Positions 3,376-9,244 of a stretch of DNA of 64,000 nt are shown here, one piece after another (position 1 is the first letter of the stretch; each line of letters begins with the position of its first letter). Origin of the DNA: an uncultured SAR86 cluster bacterium (lineage in GTDB: Bacteria > Pseudomonadota > Gammaproteobacteria > Magnimaribacterales > AG-339-G14); contig CACEOL010000005.1 in assembly GCA_902561325.1 (NCBI GenBank), positions 2,220-66,219 of the forward strand. Reading direction: 5' to 3'. The position numbers and the translations under genes are program-made. The notes beneath the pieces are model-generated. The model did not search any database and had not been told where the DNA came from. It saw only the letters and a program-made list of their open reading frames with translations.

Positions 3376-5022
3376 ATGCTTAAGAAGACGCTGTACTCAC
3401 TGATTGCAATTGTTTTTATTGGGGTTATTGCTTGGGAATACAAAGTCAATATCTTAATTTGGTCCTTACCAAAGATGATGAATTTTCTTAGCCCGATTCA
3501 AGAAAACATCCCAACATCTTGGTCTATTGGGCCAGAAGAAGCAGCGAAGGACGACCGACCTAACATAATTTTAATTCTTGCTGATGATATGGGCTACAAC
3601 GATATTTCGCTCCACAATGGTGGAGCTGCTGATGGTTCATTGCAAACGCCACATATTGATGAATTGGCTACAAGTGGTGTTTGGTTTTCAAGAGGTTATG
3701 CTGCTAATGCGACTTGTGCTCCATCTCGAGCATCAATCATGACAGGCAAATATGCTACAAGATTTGGTTATGAATTTACTCCAGTACCCGATCCGGCAAG
3801 ATTTATTCTCACTTGGTTGGTTGAAGAAGACGATGCTGAATTGAGAGGGAGAATTGATCGAGAAGTCGCAAATAACTTACCTTCTTATTTCGATATGGGC
3901 ATGCCAACTGAACAAATTACTATAGCTGAAGTTCTTAAGGATGCAGGATATTACACCGCTCACATTGGTAAATGGCATTTAGGAATTACCAATGGCATGG
4001 ATCCTCAAAGTCAGGGCTTTGTTGACTCTTTGTCGCTTGCAGGGAGTTCTTATCTTTCTGAGAATGACCCTGAAGTTGTAAATGCCAAATTTGATACAAG
4101 CATTGATAAGATGGTTTGGTCTTCCTCTCAGTATGCGGCTAGATTTAATGGCAGCAAACCTTTTGCTCCTGATAAATACGTCACGGATTACTATACCGAT
4201 GAAGCATTGAAAGTGATTGAAAATAACCAGAACCGACCCTTTTTTTTATACTTAAGTCATTGGGCAATTCATAATCCATTACAAGCTTTAAGATCTGATG
4301 TTGAGCAAATGCAACATATGTCCGGCCATAACCTTCAAGTATATTCAGGCATGATTCGAGCACTTGATCGTAGTGTTGGCAAAATTATAGAAAAACTTAA
4401 AGAACTAGAAATCTATGGGAAAACCTTAATCATATTTACCAGCGATAACGGCGGTGCTAACTACATCGAATTAGAAGATATCAATAAACCTTATCGTGGC
4501 TGGAAAATATCTTTTTTTGATGGCGGTATCAGAGTGCCTTTTATTTTTAGTTGGCCTGATCGCATTGAAGCTGGTGGAAAATTCGACGATGCTATTCACC
4601 ACTTCGATATTTTTTCTACGATTGCTGCAGCGGCAAATGTAGAAATAAACAATAAACTCGTTATTGACGGAGTAAATTTACTACCTTTCATTAATAAAGA
4701 GACTTTTAATAAACCTCATGAAACTCTTTTTTGGCGCTCTGGCAATCACCAATCGGTTCTACATAAAAACTGGAAATATTTAATTAGCATTAAAGAAAAT
4801 GCTCGATGGTTGTTTGATACTTCTTCGGATCCTTTTGAAAAAAATAATGTTATTGATAAATATCCAAAACAGGCCCAGGTTATTGAAAGCTTATTGGTTG
4901 AATTCAACGATAAGCAAAGTGATCCTCTTTTCCCGTCAGCTTTTGAAGCCCCAATAATGATTGATAAATATGACGGACAAGAATATGAAGCAGGGGACGA
5001 ATATATTTACTGGTCTAATTAA
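3376..5022 (+). CDS. Cys-type formylglycine sulfatase with N-terminal membrane anchor
   Basis: ADDMG, CAPSRASIMTG (CxPxR), GKWHLG, SDNG motifs; hydrophobic N-terminus. Confidence 0.92.
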   Translation: MLKKTLYSLIAIVFIGVIAWEYKVNILIWSLPKMMNFLSPIQENIPTSWSIGPEEAAKDDRPNIILILADDMGYNDISLHNGGAADGSLQTPHIDELATSGVWFSRGYAANATCAPSRASIMTGKYATRFGYEFTPVPDPARFILTWLVEEDDAELRGRIDREVANNLPSYFDMGMPTEQITIAEVLKDAGYYTAHIGKWHLGITNGMDPQSQGFVDSLSLAGSSYLSENDPEVVNAKFDTSIDKMVWSSSQYAARFNGSKPFAPDKYVTDYYTDEALKVIENNQNRPFFLYLSHWAIHNPLQALRSDVEQMQHMSGHNLQVYSGMIRALDRSVGKIIEKLKELEIYGKTLIIFTSDNGGANYIELEDINKPYRGWKISFFDGGIRVPFIFSWPDRIEAGGKFDDAIHHFDIFSTIAAAANVEINNKLVIDGVNLLPFINKETFNKPHETLFWRSGNHQSVLHKNWKYLISIKENARWLFDTSSDPFEKNNVIDKYPKQAQVIESLLVEFNDKQSDPLFPSAFEAPIMIDKYDGQEYEAGDEYIYWSN

Positions 5023-5049
5023 ATAAACTTAATCCTGAGTTTTTTTGGG

Positions 5050-5080
5050 GAACACCCCTTCCGGAATTGAAGGGGTGCTC
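5050..5080. terminator. Probable terminator hairpin between the convergent sulfatase and receptor genes
   Basis: GAACACCCCTTC / GAAGGGGTGCTC stem (one mismatch), 7-nt loop; no clean U-tract directly after the stem. Confidence 0.5.
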
Positions 5081-5097
5081 TAGGGGGATTCTCTAAC

Positions 5098-7119
5098 TTA
5101 GAAGTTAAAGTTCAATTTGATACCGAAGTTTCGACCAGCTAAAGGCACTTCATTTTTTACAAAAGAAGTGTGATTTCTAGCTTTCTCGTCCATAAGGTTT
5201 CTTCCAAAAACAGATAAAACTAGTTCTTCGTCACTACCGATAGCAAAAGATCTTCTGATATCGAAATCGACCATGGTGTAGCCATCCGTCAAAGATTCAC
5301 CAAAACCAATATCATCTTCTTTTTGTATATCCATAACTTTGATGTCATAAGTAACATCCTCTTGTTCTAGAGCAAAACGATAGACGTTTTTAATTGGCGT
5401 AATTCTTGGAACATTTCCACCACTAGAAAAAGTTCCTACAACTTCGTCTCTACCATAAGAGATTACAAAATCTCCATTATTGGTTGTAAAAGATCTTCCA
5501 ACTTCTACTTCATATCCATTGAAGTCAGCATCAGCTTGCTTGTAATCTACATTTGGCCTGCCACTGGTAACTGTTCCTCTATTTTTAATGTAAATGTAGT
5601 TATCTACTGCATTTGCATAAACTGAGGCATTCACAAAGTAGCCATCATTTTCATAGCTCACGCTAAAATCTAAATTATTGGACCTTTCGGACTCTAAATT
5701 TACGCTACCAAACTCGTTTCTAGCTGCTGCTAAATGAGTACCATTCATAAACAGTTCTATTTCAGATGGAGCTCTTGCAACACTTGAAATACCTAGAGTT
5801 AGACCAACATTATTGTCTAAGTCCCAACCCATTGTAAGCGCAGTACTCAAATCACTTTCGCTAATATCATGAAGAGTGTTGCCAATTGCACCATCTCGAT
5901 TAACCTGATCCAAACGAACACCAAAATCTAGGTCTACAACGTCTAGCTCCCTGCAGATGAAGTAGCCAACACTTAACATTTGAGAATCTACTGGTTTCAT
6001 GAACGCTTCCTCTCCAATAATCGCCACATCTTCTTGGCTGACATTGATTGTCACATTCTGTCTGTTACCACCATCTTGGTTTCCGATATCAAGCTTCATA
6101 CCGAATTCGAAAGATTCGTTAGTGAAAGTTGTTGGACCATGTTCTTCCTCTTCTTCCTCTCCTTCTTCTTCGTGATGCAACTCTACATGACCTTCAGTAA
6201 AGGAATAATCATTTGCTTGAAAGAAATAGCTAAGTTTATCTAACCCACTTAGATTGGTCACAGCTCCTTCTATGGTCACATTTTCCGAAGAAGTATCTGC
6301 TTGAATTCTTTCTTCATGCTCCTCTTCTCCTTCATGCTCTTCTTCTTCACCATGGAAAGCAATACCGTAAGTATTTTCAATCTTGCCTAAAGAAAAACCA
6401 AAATAACCCCAGTCTTCAATTGTTGAAAGACCAAATTTTTGACTGAAAGTTGCTAAATCAGAATTTGCTAAAGTTGTTTCTGCTTCAGGCGAACCTTCGT
6501 GAATGATGGCACCGCTTGGAACCTCGTGACTTTCAAAGTTTACTTCTTTTAAAGCATAAGTCAGATTTATACCACCTACATTGCCTTTATAAGAAAAACT
6601 TCCGGTAGTTCCCATGTTTGCTGTTTGTCTTTCAAGACCTATATTAAAGTCATTACCTTCAAAGTCTTTGTTGGCAATAGTTTGATCAACGATATTGATG
6701 ATTCCACCCATTGTTCCATTGGAATATAACAAGGATGAAGGGCCACGAACCACTTCGATTTGTTGTAAGTCGTTCACATCGACATCATTTAAATGGTCAG
6801 AACCTAGGCCAGAGACATCTCTGACTAACTTACCGTTAGATAGAATTCTCACTCTAGTCCCGCCCATTCCTCTGATAATTGGTTGTCCAACTCCAGGACC
6901 AAAGCCGGATGAATTTACTCCTAGCAAATAGTCAATGCTGTCTCCTAGATTTGTTGAACCTGTATAATTAATGTCATCTCCAGTGATAACAAATATTGGT
7001 GAATCTATTTCAGCAAGTGTTGCTCCTCCAAGAGATGAAGTAACAATGACTTCCTCATCCATTGCATAAAGCACATTTAGAAATGCGAAACACAAAATAA
7101 AATACAAAGATTTTTTCAT
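5098..7119 (-). CDS. TonB-dependent outer-membrane receptor, ZnuD-like (probable metal uptake)
   Basis: Signal peptide, TonB-box-like EEVIVTS, plug motif IEVVRGPSSLLY, two His/Glu-rich loops, C-terminal Phe; SD AGGAGG. Confidence 0.88.
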   Translation of the reverse strand: MKKSLYFILCFAFLNVLYAMDEEVIVTSSLGGATLAEIDSPIFVITGDDINYTGSTNLGDSIDYLLGVNSSGFGPGVGQPIIRGMGGTRVRILSNGKLVRDVSGLGSDHLNDVDVNDLQQIEVVRGPSSLLYSNGTMGGIINIVDQTIANKDFEGNDFNIGLERQTANMGTTGSFSYKGNVGGINLTYALKEVNFESHEVPSGAIIHEGSPEAETTLANSDLATFSQKFGLSTIEDWGYFGFSLGKIENTYGIAFHGEEEEHEGEEEHEERIQADTSSENVTIEGAVTNLSGLDKLSYFFQANDYSFTEGHVELHHEEEGEEEEEEHGPTTFTNESFEFGMKLDIGNQDGGNRQNVTINVSQEDVAIIGEEAFMKPVDSQMLSVGYFICRELDVVDLDFGVRLDQVNRDGAIGNTLHDISESDLSTALTMGWDLDNNVGLTLGISSVARAPSEIELFMNGTHLAAARNEFGSVNLESERSNNLDFSVSYENDGYFVNASVYANAVDNYIYIKNRGTVTSGRPNVDYKQADADFNGYEVEVGRSFTTNNGDFVISYGRDEVVGTFSSGGNVPRITPIKNVYRFALEQEDVTYDIKVMDIQKEDDIGFGESLTDGYTMVDFDIRRSFAIGSDEELVLSVFGRNLMDEKARNHTSFVKNEVPLAGRNFGIKLNFNF
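6133..6357 (-). repeat. Two low-complexity His/Glu-coding tracts in the receptor, one with an imperfect 18-nt tandem repeat
   Basis: FHGEEEEHEGEEEHEER and GHVELHHEEEGEEEEEEHGP; ttcatgctcctcttctcc / ttcatgctcttcttcttc at 6313-6348. Confidence 0.7.
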
Positions 7120-7173
7120 AATCTCCTCCTAAGAAATTAAAAAATTAAAATTAAAAAAGTTTAAAAGTTGGTC

Positions 7174-7461
7174 TTATTGAGGCGGGGCTCTAGAAAGAAA
7201 GTAAGACTGATTCTTTTTTTCATAAAAACTGATTTGTTCAATTTCTATGTTGTCAGAGAAAAAAAGATGATATGAAGTAAATTCAAGTTCATTACTTACT
7301 TGATCGCCGATACAAGAATGACATTCATTTTGAAATTCAAATTCATGATGCTCGACATCATGAGTTTCGTGAGAATGATCATGAGAAAGCTCTCCAAGTA
7401 AGCCACTTGAAGCTAAAACCAAGCTAAAAAGAATTGCTAGTTTGTTTCCTTTCCCTAACAC
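7174..7461 (-). CDS. Putative metal-sensing ribosome-arrest leader peptide (DUF2946/CruR-like architecture)
   Basis: Basic plus hydrophobic N-terminus, HDHSHETHDVEHH, CHSC, C-terminal SRAPPQ; ends 54 nt upstream of the receptor; GTG start. Confidence 0.75.
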   Translation of the reverse strand: MLGKGNKLAILFSLVLASSGLLGELSHDHSHETHDVEHHEFEFQNECHSCIGDQVSNELEFTSYHLFFSDNIEIEQISFYEKKNQSYFLSRAPPQ

Positions 7462-7473
7462 GCGAGAGATTGT

Positions 7474-7479
7474 ATTATA
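7474..7479 (-). promoter_or_regulatory. -10 box for the uORF-receptor transcript
   Basis: Perfect TATAAT on the minus strand 12 nt before the GTG; no good -35. Confidence 0.45.
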
Positions 7480-7524
7480 AAAAAAGATTTTTTACACTTT
7501 TCATTTAATTTTTGGAAGAAAGAT

Positions 7525-8112
7525 ATGAGATTGTCATTTATTTTATTAACAGCTTTTTTTATTTCGTGTTCAGAAATTTCTCATAATTCAGCAGAGTGGC
7601 AAATTAAAACTTATTCTTCTGCTGCACCTTCATACATTGGAGATTTTGCTACTGTGATAGGCGGTAACGGAGAAATATTGAGAGAAGGTACCAACGGCTG
7701 GATTTGCCAACAAGGCAATCCAAGACCTTATCCAAAAGAAGGATGGAAATCTGCTCATGAAGCTATGCCAGCATGTCACGATGAAGAAGGGATGAAATGG
7801 ATGATGGCTTATGCTGAAGGAAAGGCTCCTAATTTAACCAGAGACACATATATGTGGATGCTTCATGGCGATGTTGGTGAAGACAATTTAGTACCTGGTG
7901 TTTTAAACAAAAGTGATTCAACCCCGGGACAATGGATTGAATCAGGTCCACACTTAATGCTGATGCCAAAAGATCCAAAAAGCCTGAAAAATTTCACTAC
8001 TGATTTCACAAATGGAGAACCTTATGTCATGTTTCCAGGAACTGTTTACGCTCATTTGATGATTCCTGTGGAAGGTTATTACGATTACCAGCCTTCAGCT
8101 AAACCAGACTAA
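7525..8112 (+). CDS. Hypothetical lipoprotein, His/Met/Cys-rich
   Basis: Lipobox-like FISC; motifs NGWIC, PACHD, WMLHGD, GPHLM, YAHLMIP. Confidence 0.7.
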   Translation: MRLSFILLTAFFISCSEISHNSAEWQIKTYSSAAPSYIGDFATVIGGNGEILREGTNGWICQQGNPRPYPKEGWKSAHEAMPACHDEEGMKWMMAYAEGKAPNLTRDTYMWMLHGDVGEDNLVPGVLNKSDSTPGQWIESGPHLMLMPKDPKSLKNFTTDFTNGEPYVMFPGTVYAHLMIPVEGYYDYQPSAKPD

Positions 8113-8113
8113 C

Positions 8114-9244
8114 TTATAGAGAGCCAAAGAAGTTTCTTAGTTCTTGGACGTAAAGTTCTGGCTTTTCCAAAGCAGCAAAGTGCCCGCCTGAATCTAAAAC
8201 ATTGTAATACTTTAGGTTGCTGTAGCGTTTTTTAAGCCAACGTTCAGATGCTTTGAAAATCTCTTTAGGATAGATACTTACTCCAGTGGGTGTTTTAACT
8301 TCTCCGCCATTGAATTCGCCAAAACTTTCCCAATATAATCTTGCGGAGGATGTTGCAGTTTCCGTTAACCAATAAAACATAACATTAGTCAGCAACTCAT
8401 CTCTTGATACGGCATTTTCTGGATGGCCGTTACAATCAGTCCATTGGTAAAACTTTTCTAGAATCCAGGCTGCTTGACCGACAGGCGAATCTGTCAGTCC
8501 ATAGCCTAAAGTTTGCGGTCTTGTGGATTGTTGTTTGGAATAGCCAGAGTCCCACTCTTGGTAGAATTGAAATCCCGCTAGAGCGTTTTGCTCAAATTCA
8601 GTTAAATCATTCATGGTATCCATATCAGGAGAAACCACTGCCATATTTAAATGAATAGCTTCACAGTCAGGATCTTGTGTGCCAAGAGCAGTGGTAACCG
8701 CAGAACCCCAGTCACCACCTTGAGCAAAATATTTTTTGTAACCAAGGTCTTTCATGAGTTGAGAAAAAGTATCTGCAATCTTTTCTACACCAAACCCTGG
8801 TTTTGTGGGTTTTCCTGAAAATCCAAATCCAGGTAATGAGGGTGTTACCACATGAAAAGCATCCTTAGGATCTCCACCATCAATTGTCGGATCTGCTAAA
8901 GGTTTAATCACTTTTAGAAATTCCACAATGGAACCTGGCCAACCATGAGTGATGATGAGAGGTTTGGCTTCTTTGTGAGGAGAGGGGTAATGAATAAAAT
9001 GAATATCCAAATCATTTATATTTGTTATGAATTGAGGAAATTCATTAATGTTTTTTTCATTTTTTTTCCAGTCATAATCATTCACCCAATATTCGTGAAT
9101 TTCTTTCATGTAAGACAAAGGAATGCCTTGAGTCCAATCGTCCGGCGTCTCTTTTTCAGGCCATCTTGTGAGTTCCAAACGTTTTTTTAAATCTTCAAGC
9201 TTACTTTCAGGAATATCTATTGAGAAATCTTTTATTTTTGACAT
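8114..9244 (-). CDS. Epoxide hydrolase (EHN-type alpha/beta hydrolase)
   Basis: HGWPGS, GGDWG nucleophile, GGHFAALE; N-terminal DLKKRL..TRWP. Confidence 0.9.
   Translation of the reverse strand: MSKIKDFSIDIPESKLEDLKKRLELTRWPEKETPDDWTQGIPLSYMKEIHEYWVNDYDWKKNEKNINEFPQFITNINDLDIHFIHYPSPHKEAKPLIITHGWPGSIVEFLKVIKPLADPTIDGGDPKDAFHVVTPSLPGFGFSGKPTKPGFGVEKIADTFSQLMKDLGYKKYFAQGGDWGSAVTTALGTQDPDCEAIHLNMAVVSPDMDTMNDLTEFEQNALAGFQFYQEWDSGYSKQQSTRPQTLGYGLTDSPVGQAAWILEKFYQWTDCNGHPENAVSRDELLTNVMFYWLTETATSSARLYWESFGEFNGGEVKTPTGVSIYPKEIFKASERWLKKRYSNLKYYNVLDSGGHFAALEKPELYVQELRNFFGSL

Follow-up and report, generated by a model that had tools for sequence, protein, structure and literature searches.

A candidate zinc-sensing counterpart of the CruR arrest leader in front of a ZnuD-like TonB-dependent receptor in SAR86 cluster bacteria

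The closest described relative of the element reported here is CruR (Bp2923, DUF2946/PF11162), a leader peptide that precedes the copper TonB-dependent transporter BfrG/CrtA of Bordetella pertussis (PMC9426467, PMC12914433, PMC12992588). CruR arrests ribosomes in vitro at an RAPP motif (PMC12992588); its signal peptide is reported to be dispensable for regulation, and lengthening the 45-residue spacer between its CxxC and RAPP by five residues broke regulation (PMC9426467). Roy et al. present CruR as the first transition-metal-responsive leader and state that neither copper nor zinc has a known riboswitch (PMC9426467). Here we analyze a 64,000-nucleotide (nt) stretch of an uncultured SAR86 cluster bacterium (GCA_902561325.1, contig CACEOL010000005.1, positions 2,220 to 66,219), referred to as the window, in which a leader open reading frame (ORF) encoding a putative metal-sensing arrest peptide (7174..7461, minus strand) lies in front of a gene for a ZnuD-like TonB-dependent receptor (5098..7119, minus strand). 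We consider it on balance probable that this leader is a cis-acting nascent-chain zinc sensor controlling a zinc importer.

Two other groups of leaders are relevant. CutF precedes cutO in Rhodobacter capsulatus (PMC9973294; bioRxiv 10.1101/2025.02.05.636593) and is described as requiring its signal peptide (bioRxiv 10.1101/2025.02.05.636593). The RAPP/QAPP ('RQH') arrest peptides such as ApdA and ApdP are small proteins with a localization signal and a C-terminal RAPP or QAPP (PMC10987492, PMC12992588), features shared by the window's leader, and are best known upstream of sec and yidC genes (PMC10987492); the tested peptides described in these papers precede sec/yidC or Streptomyces genes, and none is known to have been tested with zinc or placed in front of znuD. 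RAPP leaders before TonB receptors have been reported as an enriched class (PMC12992588), and the source data of that paper include nine rows with a 'zinc-regulated' TonB receptor downstream; the main text as indexed does not contain the word 'zinc'. The mechanism class and the occurrence of such leaders before TonB receptors are thus already published, which limits the surprise of the present finding. Our literature search found no zinc-responsive arrest leader, in a set of sources that left subscription papers mostly uncovered and whose supplements could list this leader family.

The leader has 95 codons, a GTG start and a C-terminus reading SRAPPQ-stop. From the N-terminus it contains a hydrophobic export-signal-like segment, recognized by hydropathy only (residues 8-22; 7396..7440), a His/acidic cluster (residues 27-39; 7345..7383) in which H27 is the sole nearly invariant column, a CxxC in the form CHSC (C47 and C50, residues 47-50; 7312..7323), a spacer of 40 residues up to the Arg of RAPP (7192..7311) that is fixed in length and free in sequence, and the predicted RAPP arrest motif (residues 91-94; 7180..7191), whose codons form an anti-Shine-Dalgarno (anti-SD) arm in most relatives. 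The 54 nt intergenic region (7120..7173) is U-rich and carries the SD sequence of the receptor, AGGAGGAG, at 7123-7130; all of these lie on the minus strand. Each element of the leader, together with two His/Glu-rich runs in the receptor (residues 256-269 at 6313-6354 and 311-327 at 6139-6189, minus strand), had been picked out in a first-pass annotation made from the sequence, and all are present as described there. The ending is unlikely to be due to chance: R[AG]PP occurs in only 2 of 3422 stop-to-stop frames of at least 60 amino acids in the whole genome (1.17 Mb and 87% complete, in an order with genomes of 0.7-1.8 Mb), and is C-terminal only in the leader. The leader also has the attributes used in a broad rule set to define CutF-like proteins (PMC9973294), being shorter than 150 residues with PP among its last 15, a signal (by hydropathy) and a same-strand neighbor within 1000 nt.

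There is no SD at the GTG start, and a likely −10 box, TATAAT (7474..7479, minus strand), lies 12 nt before it, so that translation of the leader in the window is probably leaderless or nearly so. An SD is likewise absent at 118 of 121 homologous leader starts, and many have a −10-like hexamer 6-12 nt ahead; a promoter scan that performed at chance level did not list the TATAAT. Searches of Pfam and NCBIfam assign the leader to no family, and an Rfam search of window positions 4800-8200 returned no match. Marine RNA libraries contain near-identical sequence, including contigs that span the leader-receptor junction (6964-7368 and 7020-7267); these come from one sample and are strandless, and a single transcript is not demonstrable from them.

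To describe the conservation of the leader we use 129 receptor loci, which are top search matches plus hand-picked loci rather than a random sample; duplicate fetches of a locus are counted once, three unpublished genomes (G523, G533 and G379) are excluded from every count, and one locus without a receptor N-terminal match (L059, in G049) is not counted. A leader is present at 127 of the 129 loci (125 genomes in 17 genera), or 127 of the 128 with upstream DNA, and ends 32-65 nt from the receptor gene. The two leader-less loci are one that is cut 42 nt upstream and one, in genome G059, with an unrelated Nmad3 gene in that position. The arrest motif stands 1-5 residues before the stop codon and is RAPP in 106 leaders and QAPP in 21, the latter being the only substitution seen and confined to genus g17, where all 21 loci carry it. 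Ribosome arrest by QAPP has been shown for a tested peptide (PMC10987492), so the sole substitution remains among known arrest motifs. The spacer from Cys to motif measures 40, 41 or 42 residues in 38, 84 and 5 loci, respectively. The first Cys is kept in every one of the 127 leaders and the second in 119, and an alignment of 35 sequences shows no variation at C47 or RAPP and almost none at H27 and C50, with a single His column conserved at 90% or more. A 12-residue hydropathy of at least 1.8 was found in 123 of 124 leader homologues scored.

Within the order, 204 of 266 genomes have a match to a leader profile, in most cases a single one, and the profile also matches 293 representatives in a library clustered at 50% identity; among the best 150 library matches, 116 end in RAPP, QAPP or RGPP. 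Two genus mates of the window's genome, G003 (L008, L058) and G008 (L011, L057), have two leader-receptor copies each, reflecting duplication or a mixed assembly, and one of the two G003 receptors has internal stops. The annotation had suggested checking whether signal, His, CxxC and RAPP are conserved together upstream of orthologous receptors. The hydrophobic N-terminus, the CxxC and RAPP/QAPP behave in this way; the poly-His tract is lineage-specific, with one to seven His (commonest two) in the 26 residues ahead of the first Cys across the 127 leaders and just one to three in genus g14, which is controlled by the zinc repressor Zur. We therefore rejected the tract as the determinant of zinc, which it had been taken to be.

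What points to zinc is the receptor. This 673-residue protein (Plug plus TonB barrel; ATG at 7119) has ZnuD (NF038289) as its best NCBIfam model, at 245 bits, as against only 54 bits for a copper-receptor (OprC-like) model in a comparison that does not extend to CrtA, and its best match in the PDB is Neisseria ZnuD (4rdr). The buried zinc site of ZnuD is formed by D99, H100, E340 and H499 (PMC4557270), to which D108, H109, E309 and H462 of the window's receptor correspond. This is a match by sequence alignment, with D108, H109 and H462 aligned directly to 4rdr, E309 placed through a bridging homologue in L175, and a numbering offset of 14 counted by hand from the alignments. The four ligands are invariant in all 41 aligned receptors, 24 of which had been chosen with the ZnuD model. 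Orthologous receptors (L032-L058, L016-L030) contain 10-46 His through expansion of their His/acidic loops, and the window's genus has the short form. Like ZnuD of Neisseria meningitidis, the receptor has conserved counterparts of the four high-affinity zinc ligands, His/acidic loops and, on orthologous operons, a Zur box (PMC2895646, PMC4557270); unlike it, it has a leader gene in front, and neither Zur nor a Zur box was found in the window's genome, where the best score at the operon is 10/14.

The second line of evidence is Zur itself. Fur-family genes are present in 57 of 61 relatives, and a clear second one only in G059, for which the best-scoring model is Zur (122 bits; cut-off 167). Searches of the order with this protein as the single query, in genomes that are mostly incomplete, find Zur in 13 of 266, all in one family, and in 3 of the 57 that are at least 90% complete; no match was found in the other 49 genomes of the window's family. 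The ZnuD-like receptor was found in seven of the 13 Zur genomes, and zur is intact in six of those. Scored against the 14-position consensus printed in PMC2895646, a Zur box of at least 12/14 occurs at the receptor operon in five of these six relatives, and directly before the leader at six of seven g14 loci versus none of 116 other loci. A genome-wide scan of five Zur genomes allowing one mismatch gave seven sites: two at the receptor operon, three before a MerC-like gene, one before another TonB receptor and one with an unclear target.

The association extends beyond the order. In 301 genomes of the class there were 35 ZnuD-like matches, of which 30 were fetched and 24 retained after removal of three in-order and three unpublished ones. 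A His/Cys leader ending in RAPP or RGPP occurs at 11 of the 24 loci (a raw count, with 519-1488 nt of upstream DNA), and profile comparison indicates that these leaders are homologous to the window's family (probability 96.9, E 1.3e-10). A box scoring 12/14 or better precedes four of these 11 leaders, and zur adjoins the locus in three of the four. Of 20 outside genomes tested, a Zur-like gene (called at 97 bits or more, two of them read through a stop) is present in all 10 whose box scores 11 or higher versus 3 of the 10 whose box scores 9 or less. Since box score tracks the Zur-like gene, we take the box to be a real Zur signal and the operon part of the zinc-starvation response; by these predicted sites, the Zur boxes tie the receptor operon to zinc.

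ZnuD-like loci of other Gammaproteobacteria have the box, the leader, both or neither, and leader and Zur-like gene coexist in 8 of the 11 leader-bearing cases, so the leader is an added layer rather than a strict replacement. Genome G059, which lacks the leader but has a Zur-like gene and, 33 nt ahead of the receptor, a box of 13/14, had alone suggested mutual exclusion, which is ruled out by coexistence in g14, in G121 and in those eight loci. The leader-less G059 receptor (L091) is flanked by an integrase-like gene (1264-2748, identified by eye) and the Nmad3 gene (5509-6315), which suggests that the locus was rearranged or acquired. Because Zur is unfound in most genomes of the order, the leader is the only recognizable zinc control on the importer there. 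The idea of repressor-free regulation put forward in the annotation agrees with this distribution; it does not hold generally, given the Fur-family genes of most relatives and the coexistence of leader and Zur in g14 and outside the order.

The leader and CruR are each the first gene before a TonB-dependent receptor for metal import. Each has a predicted export signal and a C-terminal RAPP separated from a CxxC by a spacer of set length, and both are expected to follow the logic in which stalling is ON and metal is OFF. However, the spacer is 40-42 residues in this family (40 in the window) rather than 45, the leader-receptor gap is 32-65 nt (54 in the window) rather than the 162 nt given for CruR, an invariant His precedes the Cys, and 8 of 127 leaders do without the second Cys. 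The receptor is of the ZnuD type with Zur boxes in relatives, whereas CruR serves copper-related genes; and whereas CruR uses Rho, the SD is masked by the RAPP codons in most loci here. PF11162 had no match in the leader, in 35 homologues or in 61 genomes, although 4 of the 11 leaders outside the order match it below cut-off (best 23.5 versus 23.7 bits), and the nearest named Atlas clusters, at 0.92, were DUF2946 (139 shared features) and DUF2607 (145 shared features), which is no more than a lead. The annotation's description of a CruR-like RAPP leader before a ZnuD-like receptor is supported by the anatomy of the leader and by the receptor ligands; the HMM comparison with DUF2946 that it called for was negative. 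By analogy, the leader probably works like CruR, with a CutF-like output in most genera; lacking a Pfam match and having a different spacer, it is not classed as DUF2946. With CutF it shares an exported (here by hydropathy) Cys-containing peptide and a Pro-rich end; stem-loop control of the downstream SD is predicted by folding, the masking stem-loop being strong in 107 of 127 loci and weak in the window. CutF, in contrast, is described as having CxxxC and PPP, a copper-induced stall and a detoxifying oxidase as its target; the target in the window is an importer, and the opposite polarity is therefore expected.

Taken together, the leader is very probably a regulatory arrest leader and likely to be responsive to metal; that the metal is zinc, acting in the OFF direction, seems to us the better supposition, with the receptor ligands and the Zur boxes of relatives making zinc the most likely ligand as judged from sequence. 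As has been measured for CruR, a ribosome would stall at Pro-Pro as long as no metal occupies the N-terminal His/Cys site, and the stalled ribosome would keep the receptor gene ON. The means in most genera would be coverage of RAPP codons that otherwise pair with the receptor SD; in the window's genus protection from Rho may contribute. The invariant His and Cys would by then have just emerged from the exit tunnel, some 43-66 residues away from the site of stalling, and zinc bound there would free the stall and turn the receptor OFF. Arrest, ligand, polarity and compartment of sensing are all inferred here. As CruR is reported to work without its signal peptide and CutF to need one, cytoplasmic and periplasmic sensing are both compatible with the data; release by pulling force during export, the annotation's suggestion, is not established, the CruR signal peptide being dispensable (PMC9426467).

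At the output step, the Ala-Pro-Pro codons of the leader pair with the receptor SD in most loci, and when the 127 loci were folded with the footprint of the stalled ribosome removed, and upstream RNA barred from pairing across it, the median cost of opening the SD dropped from 8.0 to 3.0 kcal/mol, with a reduction of more than 2 kcal/mol in 107. Native codons exceed the mean of 40 synonymous randomizations in 100 of the 127. The SD variant GGAGT occurs in 38 of 39 loci together with GCT as the Ala codon, as against 0 of 48 in the register that uses Pro1-CCT only, and alternation of the two codon registers is significant on the tree (9 pairs, median p 0.03; FastTree).

Several observations weigh against our reading, some at this step and others, given below, at the choice of ligand. 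On the same tree, covariation with the SD amounts to four independent pairs (p 0.25), and complementarity of Pro-Pro codons to a GG-rich SD is to be expected in any case. The window's own hairpin is weak (6.3 versus 5.5 kcal/mol, z = +1.09), its native codons do no better than randomized ones, and in genus g1 the duplexes of own pairs are weaker than those of cross-genus pairs. It is possible, if unlikely, that in the window's genus the stall blocks Rho-dependent termination as in CruR instead of freeing the SD, an alternative for the output only, with which zinc sensing is compatible. Rho is encoded in the genome, and a U-rich stretch with more C than G covers the 3′ end of the leader, to which the weak SD hairpin of the window and genus g1 can be added. 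The C excess is modest, a raw count of at most 16 C versus 5 G per 78 nt; the 54 nt gap is far from CruR's 162 nt, and 107 of the 127 loci have a strong stall-reversible SD hairpin. Given the weak SD pairing in the window's genus, Rho protection may nonetheless carry part of the effect.

A rather unlikely alternative for the ligand retains the arrest switch but has it sense copper, nickel, cobalt or several metals, either as a cross-check on a zinc importer or because the receptor carries another metal. In CruR a CxxC like that of the leader forms the copper site, and both characterized relatives sense copper through Cys motifs; Ni/Co binding has been proposed for His-only CutF-like clusters before HupE/UreJ genes (PMC9973294). 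The comparison of the receptor with ZnuD models, called for by the annotation, identified ZnuD as the best model, but its 245 bits are far below the cut-off of 950, a value reached in none of 301 genomes of the class. The evidence from Zur can also be read differently. The boxes mark the operon as zinc-controlled, and a second layer could sense something else, a second zinc sensor being partly redundant where Zur already governs the operon. Genome G121 has an intact zur and lacks a box at the receptor operon, the six g14 loci with a box form a single clade and hence count as one event, and leader, box and Zur-like gene are all missing from 4 of the 24 loci outside the order. No ZnuA was found among the 61 genomes of relatives, and arrest, metal binding and expression of the leader family rest on inference.

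Nevertheless, the four ZnuD ligands are kept, the copper-receptor model scores far lower than ZnuD, and the operon is Zur-boxed in relatives. The eight leaders without a second Cys all kept the first, and His is always found ahead of it. We also rejected control by a Fur box ahead of the leader, the best score among 123 loci being 12/19, no better than shuffles. The preference for zinc over copper in the annotation is supported in this way, by receptor and Zur boxes and not by the poly-His tract from which it was argued.

We consider it improbable that the leader is a SecM- or ApdP-like monitor of export or envelope redox state that paces receptor synthesis by translocation capacity. The nearly universal hydrophobic N-terminus and the best-known genomic setting of RAPP/QAPP leaders, before sec and yidC, are what such a monitor would have. 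A CxxC can also form a disulfide. However, the gene downstream is a metal receptor, export monitoring does not require a His and a Cys that never vary and keep a constant distance to RAPP, and a second Cys that is dispensable in eight loci is contrary to a disulfide sensor. That the ORF simply encodes a small secreted metal-binding protein, as its signal-like start and His/acidic cluster might suggest, is very improbable in view of an invariant motif that bacterial proteomes are reported to avoid strongly (PMC12992588), a spacer variable in sequence and constant in length, and a position always 32-65 nt ahead of the receptor.

We tentatively propose, with somewhat less than even confidence, that these leaders do for zinc what CruR does for copper, as a family of nascent-chain sensors in front of ZnuD-type importers across the Gammaproteobacteria that acted first as a second layer under Zur and, in an abundant marine order with streamlined genomes, became the sole zinc regulator of the importer after Zur was lost, with the four arrest codons serving as anti-SD arm. 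If so, about 330 nt would do the job of a transcription factor, metal-responsive arrest leaders would extend from copper to zinc, and the control of zinc import in small-genome marine bacteria, with Zur found in 13 of 266, would be explained. Natural variants are available with leader only, leader plus Zur box or Zur box only, with RAPP or QAPP, and with one Cys or both. The leader, being short, could also act as a translation-level zinc reporter.

Some further features of the Zur genomes deserve mention. A MerC-like membrane gene lies between secG and rimP directly behind a Zur box in three of them (L170:1120-1500, L168:1093-1500 and L172:1094-1498) and, ZnuA being unfound in the 61 genomes, is by its sequence a candidate inner-membrane zinc importer; the window's genome has only a weak MerC-like match (C13:15820-16185, E 2e-4). 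The zur copy of G120 (C1:688025-688426, L211) contains four stops in the same gene context as the intact zur of G121, an apparent case of loss in progress. In genus g19, where the leader and the ZnuD-like receptor were not found, a different TonB receptor lies behind a perfect Zur box (L174:1536-3014, in G204).

In genus g2 (L021, L023, L024, L027 and L028) a second TonB receptor of about 945 residues follows the ZnuD-like gene on the same strand, at a distance of about 65 nt in four loci, and may share control by the leader. Downstream of the window's receptor, between it and a convergent sulfatase gene, there is a 12-bp hairpin (5050-5080, z −3.7) that is followed on the receptor strand by an A-run, not a U-run, and was not listed by a terminator scan. 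On the other side, a divergent gene for a 195-residue lipoprotein-like product of no known family, with Cys/His/Met motifs (7525-8112, plus strand), shares a 63-nt promoter region with the leader, and is divergent in most genus mates too.

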